From the IMG/VR virus record IMGVR_UViG_2778261162_000005: a DNA stretch of 36,774 bases, one strand, 5' to 3'. The stretch comes from a virus. Lineage: Duplodnaviria > Heunggongvirae > Uroviricota > Caudoviricetes. The notes beneath the pieces are model-generated. The model was not told the DNA's origin. It saw only the letters and a list, made by a program, of their open reading frames with translations, and ran no database searches. Shown one piece after another: positions 2,491 through 33,637 of the stretch (within the stretch, counting starts at the first letter, position 1; every line of letters starts with the position of its first letter). The position numbers and the translations under genes are program-made.

Positions 2491-3123
2491 TCATTCATCG
2501 TTCGTTGCACGAACGCGCCTGATCTCCACTCTGGCAATCTGATCTGCTGGAATATAGGTTGCCAGAGCTCCCCAGTACTTATCAACCACGCCTTTATACT
2601 CTTCCCATTCGTTACTGCCTGAAGGGCTGCTGTGCGTGACGTAAAGAACCATATCGCCTTTATTCCCCAGGGTAAACGGACCGTTAGGCCACTCTTCAAA
2701 GTTCCCTGGCAGCCGTGACATCATACCGGAACCATCGCGAAGAATCACTCTGACCTCGGTAACGCTGAAGCCTGTTTGATCAAACATTGCCTGCCATGCT
2801 GAGCTGGTATCGTCAGACCATGAAATATCATTATTCCACAGTAATCTGTACATCCATTTGCGACCGTACCTGCGCCACCACGCACCGCATGTAACGGCAC
2901 ACAGAAGTGCTGGTGGTGTTGCCAGCCAGGCATTCAGACCTGCCCACATAACAGCCTGGTAAGCCATCATTGCTGTCAGGCCAAAAATCAGCGAAGAAAA
3001 AGTCACCTCAATGGGCTTGTGGTGATCCTTCAGTCCCACATTCGCAATAAAATACCCAATATAGCCACTGGTCAGGGTCACCAGTGTTGCCCATGGCAGA
3101 TTTAACAACGAAACGTCAAACAT
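2491..3123 (-). CDS. Membrane protein with about 3 N-terminal TM helices and a soluble C-terminal domain; unknown function
   Basis: Start taken at internal ATG 3123 (MFDVSLLNLPWATL...) because GGAGA precedes it; hydrophobic N-terminal about 100 aa, soluble C-terminal about 110 aa; lies downstream of the early-operon terminator. Confidence 0.6.
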   Translation of the reverse strand: MFDVSLLNLPWATLVTLTSGYIGYFIANVGLKDHHKPIEVTFSSLIFGLTAMMAYQAVMWAGLNAWLATPPALLCAVTCGAWWRRYGRKWMYRLLWNNDISWSDDTSSAWQAMFDQTGFSVTEVRVILRDGSGMMSRLPGNFEEWPNGPFTLGNKGDMVLYVTHSSPSGSNEWEEYKGVVDKYWGALATYIPADQIARVEIRRVRATNDE

Positions 3124-3161
3124 ATTTTCTCCCTGCATCCTGAATACTAAAGAGAGAGCAT

Positions 3162-3198
3162 AAAAAAAGCACGGTAAGGGGTCTACCGTGCTTTTATA
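3162..3198 (-). terminator. Rho-independent terminator ending the early operon after mor
   Basis: Read on the minus strand: GCACGGTA-loop-TACCGTGC followed by TTTTTTTATG; plus-strand side has TTTTAT as well. Confidence 0.6.
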
Positions 3199-3237
3199 CA
3201 ATAAGGAGATTTTTGAAAGGACTTTAACAAGCAGGAA

Positions 3238-3636
3238 TTATCTGGATTTGTTAACGTCTTTCGTCTCCTCTGGCAGATCTTCATCAAACAACCTGCCCTG
3301 CATCCGATCCAGTTCTTCTTTTCTGACCCGCTTAACCACGCTGTAGACCCACTGAAGCGAAACACCAAACTTGCGGGCCAGTTCGTGGTGGTTGCGTCCG
3401 TTAAACTCCCTGAAGATTTCCCGGTCGCGCTGACTGACCTTCCATACCATGCCCATCGGGAAATAAACGTTTTGCCCGCCCCAGACCTGCATCATTCGGT
3501 TCGCGACGGCCTGACCAATCTGGTCGGCAATTGCGGGCTCAATATCAATAATCTCGCGAACGGTCTCAGAGGTATGCTGTGCCAGCTCCACCAGGAGTTC
3601 CGGCCCTTTACTTCGAAACTGATTCAGGTCGCTCAT
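3238..3636 (-). CDS. mor: Mor/C-family transcriptional activator
   Basis: 132 aa; block QNVYFPMG...RDREIFREFNGRNHHELARKFGVSLQWVYSVVKR matches the recalled Mor pattern (VYIP.G, FNGRN, ELA..YGVS, VY..I.R). Confidence 0.7.
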   Translation of the reverse strand: MSDLNQFRSKGPELLVELAQHTSETVREIIDIEPAIADQIGQAVANRMMQVWGGQNVYFPMGMVWKVSQRDREIFREFNGRNHHELARKFGVSLQWVYSVVKRVRKEELDRMQGRLFDEDLPEETKDVNKSR

Positions 3637-25853: not shown

Positions 25854-26104
25854 TGAAAGAATACCGCTATTCCGGCCCGGCCAGCGGCGTCACGCTGTCG
25901 GACGGAACCGAAATCCTGCTCTGGCCGGGGAAGACTGTTTCCCTGCCGGAGGAGCATGACTACGTGAAGGTACTGGTGGCGCTGAAGCATCTGACGCCGG
26001 TATCTGAAGAAATTAAACCCGCCGGCACACCGGCTGTGCAGTCACCAAAGCGCAGGAACGGCGGTGACAGCGAGGTGAAAACGGAGGACGCCCATGTCAG
26101 CTAA
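25853..26104 (+). CDS. Hypothetical structural-module protein (83 aa)
   Basis: ATGA overlap with upstream stop; precedes the sheath gene. Confidence 0.4.
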   Translation: MKEYRYSGPASGVTLSDGTEILLWPGKTVSLPEEHDYVKVLVALKHLTPVSEEIKPAGTPAVQSPKRRNGGDSEVKTEDAHVS

Positions 26105-27521
26105 CTATCTGCATGGTCCGGAAACCATTGAAGTGGAAAACGGTGCCCGCCCGGTTAAAACGGTGAAATCTGCCGTTATTGGCCTGATTGGTACCGCACC
26201 AATGGGGGATGTCAATACGCTGGTACAGTGCCTGTCTGAGAAAGACGCTGCGGCATTTGGCAGCCAGTTCACCGGCTTTACCATTCCACAGGCGCTGGAT
26301 GCGATTTATGACCATGGTGCAGGCACCGTTCTGGTCATTAACGTACTCGATCCGTCTGTGCATAAAACCGCTGTGGTCAGTGAGAATGTGTCGTTCGACA
26401 AGGCGACAGGCAGAGCCCGGCTGGCTAATCCGGTGGTCGCGCAGCTGGTACTGAAACCGGACAGCGACGGTCAGCCTTATGTTGAAGGTCAGGACTACTC
26501 GCTTGATGCACAGACCGGGGTGATTACTAACCTGGGTAAAAGCATTGCTGCAGATGCAACGGTGAAGGCCAGCTATAACTATGCTGATCCGACCAAAGTC
26601 ACCCCGGCTGATATCATCGGTACCGTTAACGCTGCAGGCAACCGTACCGGCATGAAGCTGCTTAACGACAGTTTTAACCTGTTTGGCTACTTCGCCAAAA
26701 TCCTGATTGCTCCGGTATTCTGCACCCAGAACAGCGTCTCGGTTGAGCTTATCGCCATGGCTGAGAAACTGGGAGCAGTAACCTATATTGATGCGCCGGT
26801 TGGTACCACTTTTGCGCAGGCTCTGGCGGGACGAGGCCCGGAAGGCACCATTAACTTTAATACCAGCTCTGACCGTGTCCGCCTGTGCTACCCGCATGTG
26901 AAGGTATATGACCCGGTGACGAACACGGAACGTCTGGAGCCACTGAGCCAGCGTGCGGCGGGCCTGCGTGCCAAAGTCGACCTGGACAAAGGGTACTGGT
27001 GGTCATCCTCCAATCAGGAAATTCTGGGGATCACCGGCGTGGAGCGCCAGCTGTCGGCAATGATTGACGATCCGCAGAGCGAGGTGAACCTGCTTAACGA
27101 ACAGGGGATCACCACGGTATTCAGCAGTTACGGCAGCGGCCTTCGTCTGTGGGGTAACCGGACGGCAGCATGGCCAACGGTCACCCATATGCGTAACTTT
27201 GAGAACGTTCGCCGCACCGGTGATGTGATCAATGAGTCCATTCGTTACTTCAGCCAGCAGTACATCGACATGCCGATTACTCAGGCGCTGATTGATGCAC
27301 TGACGGAGTCGGTCAACGCCTACGGTCGCAAAATGACTGGTGATGGCGCGGTACTGGGCTTCCGTTGCTGGTTTGATCCGGCCCGCAATCCGGAAACGGA
27401 GCTGGCCGCCGGGCACCTGTTGCTGAGCTACAAATATACGCCACCACCGCCGCTGGAGCGACTGACGTTTGAGACTGAGATCACCTCGGAATACCTGTTA
27501 ACCCTGAAAGGGGGCAACTGA
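26094..27521 (+). CDS. Tail sheath protein
   Basis: 475 aa immediately upstream of the tube gene; typical size for a contractile sheath. Confidence 0.75.
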   Translation: MSANYLHGPETIEVENGARPVKTVKSAVIGLIGTAPMGDVNTLVQCLSEKDAAAFGSQFTGFTIPQALDAIYDHGAGTVLVINVLDPSVHKTAVVSENVSFDKATGRARLANPVVAQLVLKPDSDGQPYVEGQDYSLDAQTGVITNLGKSIAADATVKASYNYADPTKVTPADIIGTVNAAGNRTGMKLLNDSFNLFGYFAKILIAPVFCTQNSVSVELIAMAEKLGAVTYIDAPVGTTFAQALAGRGPEGTINFNTSSDRVRLCYPHVKVYDPVTNTERLEPLSQRAAGLRAKVDLDKGYWWSSSNQEILGITGVERQLSAMIDDPQSEVNLLNEQGITTVFSSYGSGLRLWGNRTAAWPTVTHMRNFENVRRTGDVINESIRYFSQQYIDMPITQALIDALTESVNAYGRKMTGDGAVLGFRCWFDPARNPETELAAGHLLLSYKYTPPPPLERLTFETEITSEYLLTLKGGN

Positions 27522-28042
27522 TGTCAAAGATTGAGATAAACCGAATCACGAATGCCAACATCTATCTGGATGGTACTAACCTGCTGGGACGGGCTGAGGA
27601 GGTTAAACTCCCCGATGTCTCCATGATTATGCAGGAACACAAGGCACTGGGGATGGTGGGTAAGGTGGAACTCCCGGCTGGTTTTGACAAACTGGAAGGC
27701 GAAATCAAATGGAACAGCTTTTACCGCGATGCGATGCTGTCTGCCGCGAACCCGTACAAGTCGCTGGCGCTGCAGTGTCGCTCCAGCGTCCAGCGCTACA
27801 GCTCGCAGGGGCTGATCGACGAAATCCCGCTGGTCACCTTCCTGACAATTATGTTCAAGAAGAACCCGCTGGGGACGTTTAAACAGCACGAGAACGCCGA
27901 GTTCTCCAGTAGCTTCACCTGCACGTATATCAGACAGGTACTGGATGGTGAAGAGTTGCTGCAACTGGACTATCTGGCCAACATCTTCCGCGTCGGTGGC
28001 GTTGATCAACTGACTGACTATCGGATCAATATCGGGGGCTGA
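27521..28042 (+). CDS. Tail tube protein
   Basis: 173 aa following the sheath; ATG overlaps sheath stop. Confidence 0.7.
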   Translation: MSKIEINRITNANIYLDGTNLLGRAEEVKLPDVSMIMQEHKALGMVGKVELPAGFDKLEGEIKWNSFYRDAMLSAANPYKSLALQCRSSVQRYSSQGLIDEIPLVTFLTIMFKKNPLGTFKQHENAEFSSSFTCTYIRQVLDGEELLQLDYLANIFRVGGVDQLTDYRINIGG

Positions 28043-28044
28043 CG

Positions 28045-28326
28045 GTGAGTGTTGAACTGACTGACAAAGGAGGGCGATGTGCGTCACTGGGCATGTCAAA
28101 TGGTACGTGGTTTACCCTCCTTGATATTCCGGGGGTGGAAACCCTTTTTAATACCCGTAAAACCAATGACCCGATTGACTGCACACGTTCAAAGGCCCGC
28201 AAACTGGCCGATTTGATTGAAGCATGGGAGCCGCCCGACCACTGGTTCTCCGGCATCGGCAAATCTGAGGGAAAGGCGCTTCTCATCGCTTTCCTGCGTA
28301 ACTGCAAGGGTTTTCGCACTTGCTGA
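28045..28326 (+). CDS. Hypothetical protein (93 aa) between tube and chaperone genes
   Basis: GTG 28045 after GGGGG; no recognisable motif. Confidence 0.35.
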   Translation: MSVELTDKGGRCASLGMSNGTWFTLLDIPGVETLFNTRKTNDPIDCTRSKARKLADLIEAWEPPDHWFSGIGKSEGKALLIAFLRNCKGFRTC

Positions 28327-28423
28327 CATCACAGGGGCTCCGGCCCCTTCTTCTTAATCTCCTTTAATATCCGTCACGTCCACCGCCAGACATACTGCTC
28401 TGAATTTACAAAGGAGTATGATC

Positions 28424-28759
28424 ATGTCACAGACCCAGTCCGATACTTTTACGCTGTCTTATCCTTTCACCACTGCTGCAGGTACCAGAATTGAACAGAT
28501 TGAACTGAAACGCCTGACAGTAAAAGACCTGAAGCAGGTGCGCAAAATCAACAAAGACCCGGCAGACTGGGACGAACCACTGATTGCCCGTAGCACCGGT
28601 ATCCTCCCGGAAGACCTCGATAACATGGATCTTGCCGACTATATGGAGCTGCAGAAACGATTTCAGAAAATCACTGGGCTGGGCAAGAGCGACAAAAACA
28701 CTGATGCAGGCGCAGGGCCTGCTGGCGAGATGGTTCAGGTTTCAGCCGGGGGAGATTGA
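28424..28759 (+). CDS. Tail assembly chaperone (upstream frame)
   Basis: ATG 28424, 7 nt after AAGGAG; located just upstream of the tape measure gene. Confidence 0.6.
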   Translation: MSQTQSDTFTLSYPFTTAAGTRIEQIELKRLTVKDLKQVRKINKDPADWDEPLIARSTGILPEDLDNMDLADYMELQKRFQKITGLGKSDKNTDAGAGPAGEMVQVSAGGD

Positions 28760-28841
28760 TGCCCTCGATACTGACGATCTGGAGATGTGGCTGGAGCAGG
28801 CTGAAGAGCAAATCAAAAGCGAGTTCGGCGACAATCAGTAA
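28424..28841 (+). CDS. Frameshift-extended tail assembly chaperone (shift near 28748-28753)
   Basis: A second ORF open in the frame offset by +1 overlaps the 3' end and extends to 28841; G5 run GGGGG 5 nt before the in-frame UGA. Confidence 0.45.
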
Positions 28842-28933
28842 CAACGTATCACTTAACAGCCGCCAGTCGCGGCTGTTCTGCATGGGGTTCAGACACTTCC
28901 CTTCCGTTTTTTTGCTTTCAGAGGATAGCCACC

Positions 28934-31399
28934 GTGGCCAGTGAATTTTCAGTCGGCGTCATTATTGGCGGCATTGTCGGGAGCAGCTTCCGCTCAGCCG
29001 TCAGTGGCACCCGACGCGCCCTTGATTCCCTTGGTGATACCTCCCGCCGTCTGCAGGAACGCCAGAATGCCTTAACCCGGGCAACAGAACGTTATGGTCA
29101 ACTGGGTTCTTCCCGGATGCAGCATCTCAACAGCGAGTTGCTGCGGGTAAGCCGCACCATGGAGCAAATTGAACGTCAGCAGCGCCGTCTGTCAGCAGTA
29201 TCAGCCACCGGTGATGCGTTGAAGGCTAACCGCCTGGCGCTCTATGGTCAGGGTGCAGAAACCTATGCTATTGGCAGAACGCTGGGCGCACCGGTCATGG
29301 CCTCGGTTAAACAATATGCCTCGTTTGAATCACAGTTACGGGATATCAGTGTCACAGGAGACCTGGATGCAAAACAGGAACGTGCAATTGGCCTGGCTAT
29401 CAGACAGGCCTCGCTGAAGGTTAACCAACTGCAGGAGTCTCTGTTAGGGGGAGTCGGACAATTAGTTGCTGATGGTATGGCCCCCGAACGGGCAGCAACG
29501 TTTGCAGAGATGCTTGGAAAGACCGCTACAGCAACCAAAGCCGATATGACCGACCTTGCCAAAATGACTTATGCCTTCAGCGATGCACTCAGAATCACTG
29601 ATGCGAAAGAACTTGAACAGGCATTTGGTATTGCGGCAACAGGAGCCAAACTTGGGTCATTTGAGCTGAAGGATATGGCAAAAGCATTACCCGGTATGGC
29701 TAAAGCCTTCGCTGCCCGTGGCATTTATGGAAAAGATGCGATTACCCAGATTGTTGCCAGTCTGGAGGTCGGTAAAGGTAGTGGCTCTGCAGAGGAAGCG
29801 GTCACCAATATGTCCAACTGGCTGGCAGCAATGGGCCGCGGAGATACCATCCAGAAATATGCTAAAGCCGGGGTGGATTACCAGGGGTCAATGCAGAATT
29901 ACGTCGCTCAGGGTTTTTCGCAGTACGAAGCTTCACTGATGATTGCCAACCGTTTTATCGACAGTAAAGGCAAAGCGTTTTTGCAGCAATGGAAAGCTGC
30001 AGGAGCAAGAGGCGATCAGGAAGGTCAGCAGAAACTCATGGAGTCATTTGGTCTGGCTGAGGTCTTTACCGATATTCAGACTGTCAACCATTTACTGTCA
30101 ATGCGACAGGGCTGGGATAAATACCTTTCCAGTAAGCAGGAAATGAATGCTCCGGCTGCAATGTCTACCCTGGATAAGGATGCTGCAAAGCAGAATGATA
30201 CGCTTGAAGGTCGCTGGCGCAGAATGCAGATCGGCTTTAATGATTCTGCTATCAGCATCGGGCAATCCTTGCGTCCGGCTTTGCTCCAGTTGGGTGAAAC
30301 ATTTATTCCTTTAATGGACAGCGTCGGCAAATGGATAGCGGCAAATCCGCAGCTCGTCAGCAGCACCATAAAGGTTGTGGGCGCATTACTCGCTTTCAGG
30401 ATGGCCACTATCGGTCTCAAGCTTGGGCTGAATCTCCTTATTTCCCCCTTTGTAAGCGTCTGGAAAAATGCTGTTTTACTGCGGACCAACTGGCGTCGAC
30501 TGACTACCGCACTCGGAGAAGGTGGCAAATTACGCTGGCTTGTCACTGGATTCAGCCGGCTGGCCAGCGGAGGACTGAAACTCAGCAAAGTTCTGGCGGG
30601 CAGCCTCGTTCGCGGTTTTATGATTGCTGCACGTGCCCTTCTCTGGATTGGCCGGGCGCTGATGATGAATCCCATCGGTCTCGCTATCACCGCCGTCGCG
30701 GCAGCAGCTTACCTTATCTACCGCAACTGGGGCGCAGTCAGTAGCTGGTTTAAACAGCGCTGGGCTGACATTCAGGAAGCCTTTAACGGCGGCATCGCGG
30801 GAATTGGTAAACTGCTGGTTAACTGGTCTCCGGCGGGTCTGCTTTATAAAGCCTTTGCGGCTGCGCTGAAATATCTCGGCGTTGATTTGCCGGCGAAGTT
30901 CACCGACTTCGGTGGTCATCTTATCGACGGGCTGATAAATGGCATCAGAAACAAATGGGAGTCACTGAAAACCAGCATAACCGGAATGGGTGACAGCATC
31001 AGTGACTGGTTCAGCGAAAAGCTGGGCATCCATTCACCGAGTCGCGTGTTTATAGGCTTTGGTGACAATATCGCGCAGGGTGCCGCCATTGGCCTGCAAC
31101 GGACCACTCCGCTTGCTGCACTGGCCGGGCAGCGCCTGGCCGCTGAAATGACACCGGATGTTCCCCGTATCCCGTCGCCGGAAATCATGGCTGCCGGATA
31201 TTCAGGCCGTGGCGCAACTGCAACCGGCGGTGGAGCGTCTGGCGGTATCCAGGTCAGCTTTAATCCTCAGTTTTTCCTCAATGGTAAGGAAACCGCAGCG
31301 CCTGCCGGGCTGGCTGGTGCCCTGAATATGAGCCTGCATGAGCTGGAAAAAATGCTGGAGCGTCTGCTGGCTCAGAAACAACGTAAGGAGTACAGCTGA
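28934..31399 (+). CDS. Tail tape measure protein
   Basis: 821 aa, GTG 28934 after GAGGA; long helical N-terminal half, C-terminal TM-like segments. Confidence 0.8.
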   Translation: MASEFSVGVIIGGIVGSSFRSAVSGTRRALDSLGDTSRRLQERQNALTRATERYGQLGSSRMQHLNSELLRVSRTMEQIERQQRRLSAVSATGDALKANRLALYGQGAETYAIGRTLGAPVMASVKQYASFESQLRDISVTGDLDAKQERAIGLAIRQASLKVNQLQESLLGGVGQLVADGMAPERAATFAEMLGKTATATKADMTDLAKMTYAFSDALRITDAKELEQAFGIAATGAKLGSFELKDMAKALPGMAKAFAARGIYGKDAITQIVASLEVGKGSGSAEEAVTNMSNWLAAMGRGDTIQKYAKAGVDYQGSMQNYVAQGFSQYEASLMIANRFIDSKGKAFLQQWKAAGARGDQEGQQKLMESFGLAEVFTDIQTVNHLLSMRQGWDKYLSSKQEMNAPAAMSTLDKDAAKQNDTLEGRWRRMQIGFNDSAISIGQSLRPALLQLGETFIPLMDSVGKWIAANPQLVSSTIKVVGALLAFRMATIGLKLGLNLLISPFVSVWKNAVLLRTNWRRLTTALGEGGKLRWLVTGFSRLASGGLKLSKVLAGSLVRGFMIAARALLWIGRALMMNPIGLAITAVAAAAYLIYRNWGAVSSWFKQRWADIQEAFNGGIAGIGKLLVNWSPAGLLYKAFAAALKYLGVDLPAKFTDFGGHLIDGLINGIRNKWESLKTSITGMGDSISDWFSEKLGIHSPSRVFIGFGDNIAQGAAIGLQRTTPLAALAGQRLAAEMTPDVPRIPSPEIMAAGYSGRGATATGGGASGGIQVSFNPQFFLNGKETAAPAGLAGALNMSLHELEKMLERLLAQKQRKEYS

Positions 31400-32283
31400 T
31401 GTTTGCCGTACTGGGTGATATTGAGTTTGAACTGATTACCTACTGGGACGGCTTCGAGGCCACGTTTGGCGTCGATTATGCGGAGCATGCCCGCATCGAG
31501 GGTAAACCCGGCCTGCAGTTTGTCGGCGACAGGCTGGACGAAATCCAGATAAGCCTGGTCTTCCATCAGCATTATTGTGTGCCCGACGTGGAGCTGGCGA
31601 GAGTGCGAACAGCCATGAAGGCCCATCAGGCACTGGCGCTGGTCTTCGGCAACGGTGACTATCGCGGCTGGTTCGTGATTACCGATGTGACCGCAACCAG
31701 CGAGCAGACAGACAGCACCGGTAACGTGCTGGCTGTCAGTGCCACCGTGTCTCTCCGGGAATACACCGGTGACCCGAAAAATCCTCTGCAACCGCCGGCA
31801 ATACGCAGGCAGGTTCCCGGTGCCGGAGCTGTATCGGGTGCTGTTCCATCGCCTTCCGGGGTGGCGCAGTTCGTCCGTAACGGCGTCAACTATGCGAAAC
31901 AGGCGCAGTCTGTACTCCAGACCACTATCAGTGCCGTTCGGGTGGCGCAGAAAATGAAGGGTAACCCCGTTGTCGCGCTGACCCGTGTGCCGGGACTGAT
32001 GAGCGGACTGGGTAATATATCCGGCGCTCTGGGGAAAAGTATTCCGGCGTTTAATGCACTCTCTGAATCCATGCCCGATGCCATCAGTCTGGCCAGAACA
32101 GCCAGTGAGGCAGCCACGTATGTACAGCAGGCGCAGTCGGCGCTGAGTGGTGTGGACAAAAGAAATATTGCAGGTGCTCTGGATACCGTTTCCGGGCAGC
32201 TTAACGCCGCCGGCACAGCATTCAACCGCATGTCTCCGGGATTAAGTGCAATGGCCGCCAGAATACTGACGAGGAGTGTGTGA
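31399..32283 (+). CDS. Tail protein, P2 gpU-like / Mu N-like
   Basis: N-terminus MFAVLGDIEFELITYWDG...GKPGLQFVGDRLDEIQISLVF resembles the gpU pattern (recalled). Confidence 0.55.
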   Translation: MFAVLGDIEFELITYWDGFEATFGVDYAEHARIEGKPGLQFVGDRLDEIQISLVFHQHYCVPDVELARVRTAMKAHQALALVFGNGDYRGWFVITDVTATSEQTDSTGNVLAVSATVSLREYTGDPKNPLQPPAIRRQVPGAGAVSGAVPSPSGVAQFVRNGVNYAKQAQSVLQTTISAVRVAQKMKGNPVVALTRVPGLMSGLGNISGALGKSIPAFNALSESMPDAISLARTASEAATYVQQAQSALSGVDKRNIAGALDTVSGQLNAAGTAFNRMSPGLSAMAARILTRSV

Positions 32284-32495
32284 TGTTTCTTGAACATATT
32301 ACCCGTGACGGAGAGCGCTGGGATTCGCTGGCATGGCAGTACTACGGTGACCCGCTGGGCTATCCCCGGATTATTGCAGCCAATCCGCACGTGGCCATTA
32401 CGCCGGTGCTGCCCTCCGGGTTGTTGTTACTGATCCCGGTTATTGAGGCTGAAGATGCCCGTACAGAAGAGGATATTGCCCCATGGCTGAGATAA
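32283..32495 (+). CDS. Tail protein X-like (LysM-like)
   Basis: 70 aa; RWDSLAWQYYGDPLGYPRIIAANPHVAI...LPSGLLLLIP matches the P2 gpX pattern (recalled). Confidence 0.6.
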   Translation: MFLEHITRDGERWDSLAWQYYGDPLGYPRIIAANPHVAITPVLPSGLLLLIPVIEAEDARTEEDIAPWLR

Positions 32496-33637
32496 ACAGT
32501 ACTGCGCAAGCCACATCAGCGTTAACCGGCGTCAGCGATGTGCTGACGCCGGTATTCACTCTGTGGTATCTGCAGAAAAACATCACCTCTGATATCGCGC
32601 CTTATGTCACCCGTGTGGTCTGGAGCGATAACATCAAAAATGAGTCCGATACCATTGAGGTGGAGCTGGACGACACCGATGGCCGCTGGCTGGATAAGTG
32701 GTATCCGGGCAAGGGTGACACGCTGACGCTGAAAATGGGTTATCAGGGCGAGAAACTGCTGTCCTGCGGTACATTCTCAATAGACGAGATCGAAGTGAGT
32801 TCGCCCGCGTCCGTTGTCGCTATCCGTGGGGTGGCCACCTCGGTTAACAGTGCTCTGCGGACTAAATCCAGCCGTGGTTTTGAGAACACCACGCTGGCAG
32901 CTGTTGCGGGGCGGATTGCCAGAAAGCACCGGCTGAAACTGGTGGGCAGCATTGAGTCCATCAGAATCGACCGGGTGACCCAGTATGCTGAAACCGACGT
33001 GGGTTTTCTGCGCCGGCTGGCCAGCGAGTATGGTTATGCAGTGAAAGTGGTCAGTGACCAGTTGATTTTTTCTCATCTGGCCACACTGCGCAGTCAGGAG
33101 CCGGTCAGGCAGTTAAAACCGCAGGATGTGGCCTGCTTTTCCCTGCGTGACACCATCAACCGGGTCTATAAATCTGCAAAGGTAAAACACCAGAAAAGCA
33201 GCAGTAAAAAACTGATCGTCTACGAAGCTGATGGTGGTACCCGTGAAAGCGACAAAAAGCTCAAAGGCGGTAAGGTTACCAGCGCTGACTCACTTAAAGT
33301 TAACAGCCGCGTCAGCGACCCGGACAGTGCCCGGATTAAAGCGGATTCAGCACTGGCCAGACATAACGAATACCAGCAGAACGGCTCCCTGACGCTGACG
33401 GGAACGCCTCAACTGACAGCAGGCAACAAAATTGAACTGGTGGGCTTTGGACAGTTATCCGGTCCATGGCTGATAATCACTGCCCGCCATGCGTTTGAGC
33501 GTAACAGCGGCTACACCACAGAGCTGGAAGTGGCACGGGGGCCAGTCACAAGAGGGAAAAAACAAAAAACTCAGAAACTCACGGTTTATCACCCGGATGG
33601 CAGTACATCGACGGTGATTAAGGAGAAGAAAAAATGA
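32483..33637 (+). CDS. Baseplate hub / late control D-like tail protein
   Basis: 384 aa following the X-like gene. Confidence 0.65.
   Translation: MAEINSTAQATSALTGVSDVLTPVFTLWYLQKNITSDIAPYVTRVVWSDNIKNESDTIEVELDDTDGRWLDKWYPGKGDTLTLKMGYQGEKLLSCGTFSIDEIEVSSPASVVAIRGVATSVNSALRTKSSRGFENTTLAAVAGRIARKHRLKLVGSIESIRIDRVTQYAETDVGFLRRLASEYGYAVKVVSDQLIFSHLATLRSQEPVRQLKPQDVACFSLRDTINRVYKSAKVKHQKSSSKKLIVYEADGGTRESDKKLKGGKVTSADSLKVNSRVSDPDSARIKADSALARHNEYQQNGSLTLTGTPQLTAGNKIELVGFGQLSGPWLIITARHAFERNSGYTTELEVARGPVTRGKKQKTQKLTVYHPDGSTSTVIKEKKK

Follow-up and report, generated by a model that had tools for sequence, protein, structure and literature searches.

Comparative sequence evidence suggests a +1 frameshift at a conserved UUU_C motif in the gene for the tail assembly chaperone of a BcepMu-like Escherichia coli prophage

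The gene for the tail assembly chaperone in IMG/VR virus record IMGVR_UViG_2778261162_000005, a 36,774-nucleotide (nt) stretch referred to here as the window, overlaps a second open reading frame (ORF), and comparisons with relatives suggest that the two are probably joined by a +1 ribosomal frameshift at CGA_UUU_C (28658-64). The window is a BcepMu-like transposable E. coli prophage with a P2-type contractile tail. A first-pass annotation, made from the window sequence alone, had placed the slip at a run of five G's (G5) near the end of the chaperone frame; the candidate site proposed here would lie about 90 bases 5' of that run.

The chaperone ORF (frame 2) extends from an ATG at 28418 or 28424 to a TGA at 28757-59 and ends ...VSAGGD in translation, in agreement with the SAGGD first read. 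Since a Shine-Dalgarno (SD)-like AAGGAG (28411..28416, + strand), found by reading the sequence, is only 1 nt from ATG 28418 and 7 nt 5' of ATG 28424, the latter is the likelier start. The gpE-like protein of 111 amino acids (aa) encoded from there (28424-28759, + strand), presumed to be the major product, matches Pfam Phage_TAC_7 (PF10109; residues 8-82, E=1.4e-22, 79.9 bits; cutoff 25) and no other Pfam family at E<=0.01. The second ORF (frame 0) overlaps it by 173 nt, a stretch that includes the conserved UUU_C at 28661-64, and remains open to a TAA at 28839-41; the sequence confirms the earlier statement that this ORF, ending at 28841, is reached from the chaperone frame by +1 or -2. Its portion from 28665 (28665..28841, + strand) would contribute a 58-aa E'-like/GpE-like extension, predicted as part of a fusion only. 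Two overlapping ORFs between the tube and tape measure genes, a downstream ORF that has no conserved start of its own and keeps its offset in relatives, and a conserved slippery motif (TTT_C) inside the overlap are the features of a lambda G/GT-type arrangement.

The +1 offset is widely conserved. When the chaperone and downstream peptide were compared by tblastn with 78 IMG/VR loci plus the phages KP12, PhiKM and BcepMu, it was kept in 76 of the 78 loci, both exceptions carrying 1-nt deletions, and in all three named phages. It also occurs in 14 Burkholderia BcepMu-group loci, in 29/31 genome loci from Enterobacterales, Burkholderia, Neisseria and Kingella, and in a Ralstonia phage and a Salmonella prophage, giving a total of ~120 related loci. 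This conservation, which goes well past what chance would produce, supports the first-pass view that the shift is into the +1 frame (by +1 or -2) rather than by the usual -1. A sequencing indel, named at that stage as the alternative cause of the offset, is excluded by its persistence in >100 independent sequences.

A few loci depart from this geometry. In Apirhabdus apintestini (L099; CP138906, ~1415-1440), a 1-nt deletion 14 nt 5' of the TTT changes CTGGAGCTGCAG to CTGGGCTGCAG and so creates a natural in-frame chaperone-E' fusion, which we counted in favor of the UUU_C site. Loci L078 and L082 each lack 1 nt of the C-C-G5 stretch (CAG-CGGGGG and GCC-GGGG). All three deletions may be sequencing errors, products of prophage decay or real 'pre-shifted' variants. 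In Erwinia tracheiphila (L100; JBHMFM010000001, ~1440-1615), a species rich in pseudogenes, the chaperone and the C-terminal part of E' share one frame, probably owing to an indel 3' of TTT_C.

The position at which one frame takes over from the other is indicated by codon-position variability, measured as per-codon entropy over 58 distinct close relatives (the sample behind all counts out of 58). Up to 28657, it is the third positions of the 0 frame that vary; from 28679 to the end, variability is instead seen at 0-frame first positions, equivalent to third positions of the +1 frame. The coding phase changes from the 0 to the +1 frame between 28667 and 28679, just 3' of CGA_TTT_CAG (28658-66), in which CGA, TTT and the following C are each present in 58/58 relatives and CAG in 56/58. 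Synonymous variation is missing in only 5/52 conserved degenerate 0-frame codons of 28424-28666, and the consecutive AAA_CGA_TTT accounts for three of those five. In the late genes, CGA is the rarest Arg codon (11/260), and Phe is encoded about as often by TTT (73) as by TTC (69). Downstream of the switch, a Trp (W86 of the fusion) is encoded in the +1 frame at 28680-82 in 58/58 relatives, followed by LLARWFRFQPGEIDALD... The +1 peptide from W86 onward (LLARWFRFQPGEID...) is kept, whereas the 0-frame tail is not: it alters non-synonymously, and its stop shifts among 28694, 28736 and 28757.

The same conservation bears on whether any recoding is needed. The +1 ORF could instead be a separate small gene with its own start, for example the +1-frame ATG present in the window at 28704-06, and the Prokaryotic Genome Annotation Pipeline (PGAP) does call the homologous ORF of E. 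coli GON1437 as a gene, under the name 'GpE family phage tail protein'. However, this ATG has no SD and is ACG, ATT or AAA in 25/58 relatives, and +1-frame conservation already begins 5' of it, at the invariant Trp codon. In P2, E' is made only as an E+E' fusion (AF063097 annotation), and in Neisseria and Kingella the overlaps are only ~50 nt long and centered on TTT_C. We therefore regard a separate gene as very improbable.

Stop codons in relatives confine the shift further. Eight close relatives have a +1-frame stop at window-equivalent 28632-34. The +1-frame stops of Symbiopectobacterium (L109) and Ralstonia phage YO107_2 end 14 nt and 8 nt 5' of the TTT, respectively, and in Kingella (L128), where the entire overlap is just 50 nt, a 0-frame stop begins 22 nt 3' of it, so that the shift is confined to between -8 and +22 nt of the TTT. 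Inside these bounds, all lineages have just one element in common, a TTT in the 0 frame with a C after it. Two IMG/VR loci (L049 and L050) have a 0-frame TAG in place of CAG at window-equivalent 28694-96, which shortens the unconstrained tail of the chaperone by ~20 more residues and is consistent with a shift site 5' of 28694.

Every +1-configured lineage has TTT_C at the aligned Phe, although the codons around it differ. The motif is CGA_TTT_CAG/CAA/CAT/CTG in Enterobacterales, Salmonella and Ralstonia; CAC_TTT_CGY in Pantoea persica, the Plautia symbiont and Arsenophonus; [T/G]CC_TTT_CGC or TCT_TTT_CGT in Burkholderia, including BcepMu (L004 2819-27); and TGG_TTT_CGT or ACC_TTT_CGC in Neisseria and Kingella. 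A protein alignment of lineages sharing only 29-33% identity shows the Phe to be invariant.

Other candidate elements near the switch fared poorly. AAA_A at 28667-70 was rejected as a +1 site, being present in only 9/58 relatives (CAA or CTC in relatives), as was the A5 run in GAC_AAA_AAC (28694-98), which is not conserved (GAA or CAG in relatives). No other conserved re-pairing option was found between 28653 and 28680 in the 58 relatives. A -2 re-pairing was discarded for the same interval on inspection of the sequence, in which no codon has a matching triplet 2 nt upstream, and the site, CGA_TTT_CAG, holds no X_XXY_YYZ heptamer. Transcriptional slippage requires much longer homopolymers, and the T3 here is far too short for it.

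The G5 run itself is present at 28748-52, in GCC_GGG_GGA_GAT_TGA, as the first-pass annotation described; it is not, however, the only slippery element in the overlap, which also contains UUU_C at 28661-64. A shift at the run would proceed either by -2, with the tRNA-Gly on GGA re-pairing on GGG, or by +1, from GGG to GGG while the less common GGA occupies the A site, giving a product ...VSAGG(E)IDALD... that reads MVQVSAGGEIDALDTDDLEMWLEQAEEQIK (-2) or ...SAGEIDALD... (+1). Either re-pairing is plausible chemically, no Gly codon is used less in the late genes than GGA (42/340), the run lies 5 nt before the 0-frame stop, and the verified -2 site of Mu is likewise a G5 run (CGG_GGG_CGA). Against this, 31/58 relatives have a 0-frame TAG at window-equivalent 28736-38 (CAG in the window), 10 nt 5' of the G-run, and still retain the same +1-frame peptide; in these relatives the run follows the stop. 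The TAG, CCG, CAG and TCG variants at 28736-38 are all synonymous in the +1 frame, where they specify Phe-Arg, which means that the 0-frame tail is unconstrained there.

In the +1 frame, the run reads CCG_GGG_GAG, or Pro-Gly-Glu (P108-G109-E110), within the weak GpE match at residues 100-132 and aligned with W-P-P-S-E-L of P2. It is altered to CCT/CCA_GGG_GAG in several relatives and replaced in Brenneria-type relatives, which have no G-run, by CCG_AGT_GAG (CCGAGTGAG); each of these substitutions is either synonymous or conservative when read in the +1 frame. The overlap contains no G-run at all in BcepMu, the Neisseria loci and others, and nowhere inside the functional overlap is there a conserved G-run on which a tRNA-Gly could re-pair 2 nt upstream, as at the Mu-type site. 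Protein-level selection on the +1 frame already acts ~70 nt 5' of the run (W86, LLARWFRFQP), and, because the run's codons are inside the GpE-like domain, slipping at that point would cost the protein part of it. The comparisons thus do not support tRNA-Gly slippage from GGA to GGG as the mechanism, we rejected the run as the slip site, and a functional shift there appears highly unlikely. An adventitious G-run shift could occur in this one phage, yielding a truncated domain, but it would not be the conserved feature.

From the conserved motif we infer how the shift may proceed. Most ribosomes would keep the 0 frame and produce the 111-aa chaperone, while a minority would shift +1 at CGA_UUU_C, where the peptidyl-tRNA-Phe (anticodon GAA) in the P site would re-pair from UUU (28661-63) to UUC (28662-64), its better-matched codon. 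Decoding would then resume at AGA (28665) in the +1 frame and continue to the TAA at 28839-41. The predicted product, join(28424..28663,28665..28841), is a 138-aa protein, ...ELQKRF|RKSLGWARATKTLMQAQGLLARWFRFQPGEID...GDNQ, whose expected Glu-C peptide is LQKRFRKSLGWARATKTLMQAQGLLARWFRFQPGE. Slippage from UUU to UUC by tRNA-Phe is the sole re-pairing available at the conserved motif; a -2 slip there would reach GAU, CCU or the like.

The same site and product could also arise from out-of-frame decoding in the A site, if a tRNA-Arg held by an I:A wobble on P-site CGA left the mRNA mispositioned in the A site and Phe-tRNA bound the +1 UUC directly. Enterobacterial and Ralstonia lineages invariably carry the rare CGA, and in yeast, inhibitory codon pairs containing CGA produce A-site mRNA conformations incompatible with decoding, and stalling (bioRxiv 10.1101/755652), and CGA-CGA pairs permit +1 frameshifting (PMC6301793). 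These yeast data make a CGA context effect plausible without proving one in bacteria, the precedent being eukaryotic, and other lineages hold TTT_C with different 5' codons (NCC, CAC or TGG). The predicted peptide is identical to that of P-site slippage, so sequence data cannot separate the two; we consider direct A-site decoding unlikely. Within the proposed P-site slippage, the invariant rare CGA 5' of UUU may, speculatively, act as a stimulator.

Several observations weigh against a +1 shift at UUU_C. No stimulator was found when the A-site codon, SD-like elements and downstream folding were checked. The A-site codon, CAG, is common (156 CAG vs 22 CAA), so that the slow codon characteristic of PA-X is lacking here; +1 reading in the window would begin with AGA, a rare codon. 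An upstream SD-like stimulator, GGAG at 28645-48, 12 nt from UUU, was dismissed on finding that it is lost in relatives. The minimum free energy of 28655-28745 does not differ from that of shuffled sequences (z=-0.24), and the RNAalifold consensus is weak, with a flanking helix that shows no covariation. Because Phe is conserved as a protein residue, the invariance of the motif is partly protein- rather than RNA-driven. The shift efficiency may be very low. The argument for the shift is comparative throughout and drawn from sequence.

The predicted extension may resemble E' of P2. The fusion matches Pfam GpE (PF06528) weakly over residues 100-132 (E=0.003), and its 17.5 bits, also to be set against the proposed reading, are below the gathering score of 23. 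A QP[GS]E...W motif in the extension aligns with P2, and joining the frames at UUU_C raises the TAC_7 score from 79.9 to 85.1 bits, the GpE match emerging with that junction. In NCBIfam, neither the fusion nor the extension had a match. Lambda G/GT and P2 E/E+E' (PMC5009743) suggest by analogy that the tape measure protein would be bound by the N-terminal domain common to both products and the tube protein recruited by the extension, and that the chaperone and fusion would be needed in a fixed ratio.

The fusion gene was missing or misannotated in every record examined. KP12, PhiKM and RefSeq E. coli records show the chaperone gene alone or two separate genes. The BcepMu annotation (AY539836) places slippage between gp42 (2859-3062) and gp43 (2978-3364), which seems to be the wrong pair of ORFs: homology identifies gp41 (2603-2932) as the TAC_7 chaperone and the ORF of gp42 as the E'-like extension in its +1 frame, connected via TCC_TTT_CGC (2819-27). 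The stretch called 'gp43' looks non-coding on the annotated strand. On the opposite strand of this region (~3065-3310) is a hydrophobic, membrane-protein-like ORF, ...IAIAGVVLAVWLFIELPWWSVPIVFGIVAFFGFAFLGPAVVAGSYLIAAAIKAIVWL... For the window, the correct feature for annotation would be join(28424..28663,28665..28841).

The nearest phages to the prophage are Klebsiella phage KP12, Escherichia phage Phi06_2974 B and Escherichia phage PhiKM (Bcepmuvirus). The E. coli 503025 chromosome carries the segment at 100% identity, and related copies occur in 641/5,426 complete E. coli genomes. Its tail module is P2-type (TAC_7, gpU and gpD) and not Mu-type. The sheath gene (26094-27521) is followed by a tail tube gene of the P2 FII family (27521-28042, + strand; Pfam Phage_tube, E=2e-53), and downstream of the chaperone are a tape measure gene with a GTG start (28934-31399, + strand; Pfam PhageMin_Tail, E=2e-15, annotated as tape measure in relatives), gpU (31399-32283) and gpD (32483-33637). 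Inserted between the tube and chaperone genes, where P2 has no gene, is a 93-aa ORF (28045-28326) with a weak, below-threshold match to Pfam DUF7739 (E=1.7e-5); it is kept in KP12, PhiKM and E. coli prophages.

Directly 3' of this ORF and ~75 nt 5' of the chaperone start is a terminator-like hairpin (28333-28348; AGGGGCTCCGGCCCCT then TCTTCTTAAT). A 9-bp GC-rich hairpin (28855-28877; AACAGCCGC-CAGTC-GCGGCTGTT) separates the E' stop from the start of the tape measure gene, so that the chaperone gene is bracketed by two hairpins. The downstream hairpin is kept in relatives, with variable loops and in some a shifted stem. With only a weak T tail, it does not qualify as a canonical terminator; it could serve in attenuation or as an element affecting mRNA stability.

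Programmed frameshifting in tail chaperones, +1 and -2 included, is already known. What appears to be new is that sequence comparison assigns the BcepMu-like/P2-type clade a +1 site of the UUU_C kind, beside the -1 position of P2; we found no paper on a +1 UUU_C shift in BcepMu-like chaperones in the literature searched, coverage of which was incomplete. More tentatively, P2-type tail modules across a broad clade of BcepMu-like phages and prophages, spanning Enterobacterales, Burkholderia, Ralstonia and Neisseria/Kingella, may use a bacterial counterpart of the UUU_C(GN) +1 signal known from eukaryotic viruses, one that needs no stop or hungry codon in the A site and is CGA-assisted in the enterobacterial branch. 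This would be a new class of bacterial +1 signal, as well as a switch of direction at an almost fixed position in one protein family, ~3 residues from the -1 site of P2. In bacteria, the site could also offer a simple system for testing UUU_C-type +1 slippage and the influence of a 5' CGA. As a caution for annotation, the slippery-looking run nearest the stop is not necessarily the shift site, and comparative codon-phase analysis can locate the latter.

Tail-chaperone shifts of -1, -2 and +1 are all recognized in tailed phages (PMC5009743), and 350 forward cases are included in a SEA-PHAGES training set (PMC10885494). The closest parallel to the window is P2 gpE/gpE+E', in the FETUD tail operon, where a programmed -1 shift has been mapped experimentally to G_TTT_TTG, encoding F84-L85 (AF063097 misc_feature). 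Both chaperones belong to Phage_TAC_7, both genes lie between tube (FII) and tape measure (T) genes, and both have a GpE-like extension in an alternative frame, with a fusion of 138 aa predicted here and 142 aa in P2. In each, the shift would fall at a Phe codon at the C-terminal edge of TAC_7, ~3 profile positions apart: on the 79-position profile, P2 F84 is at ~77, whereas window F80 and BcepMu F74 are at ~74. They differ in direction (+1 here vs -1), in motif (a UUU_C tetranucleotide here vs the P2 heptamer T_TTT_TTG) and in the strength of the GpE match, which is sub-threshold in the window (17.5 bits vs 76.3 bits in P2).

Direction also differs among homologs, since in Pasteurella phage AFS-2018a (L131; MH238466, ~520-545) a homologous chaperone has the -1 frame for its E'-like domain, and A_AAG_GGA, a heptamer of the canonical X_XXY_YYZ form, directly precedes the stop. 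The TAC_7 family would thus combine -1 shifts (P2 and the Pasteurella phage) and +1 shifts (BcepMu-like) near the same residue, with a -2 shift in the distant chaperone of Mu, and this -1/+1 diversity makes it a good system for studying the evolution of frameshift direction.

The -2 event in Mu, which the first-pass annotation had mentioned for Mu-type tails, is real: gp41/gp41-42 undergoes a verified -2 shift, at ~2.2%, on CGG_GGG_CGA (AF083977 annotation citing PMID 15469818; PMC5009743; PMC3498833). Mu and the window share a transposable-phage tail chaperone, a downstream frame at +1/-2 and a G5 run. However, Mu gp41 belongs to PF23746 (9e-35) and is only marginal to TAC_7, which is not the case for the window chaperone. 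The Mu site, near the gene end, allows perfect -2 re-pairing, whereas UUU_C allows none, and the G5 run of the window is not conserved and lies 3' of the constraint switch to the +1 frame. Lambda gpG/gpGT resembles the window in gene order, with an overlapping pair of ORFs ahead of the tape measure gene and a recoded fusion, here predicted, but uses another slip motif, and no sequence similarity to lambda G/T was found.

The nearest precedent for the proposed signal is influenza A PA-X, where a +1 shift at UCC_UUU_CGU was shown by mass spectrometry and the higher affinity of tRNA-Phe for UUC was invoked (PMC3498833); amalgaviruses, fijiviruses and chronic bee paralysis virus belong to the same class. 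The window differs in relying on bacterial ribosomes, in the unrelated gene, in a next codon of CAG rather than the rare CGU, and in its 5' codon, CGA. As in the PA-X class, a 0-frame UUU followed by C is synonymously conserved, in 58/58 close relatives and in all distant +1 lineages, and the likeness extends to UCC_UUU_CGC in BcepMu and UUU_CGY in most non-enterobacterial relatives.

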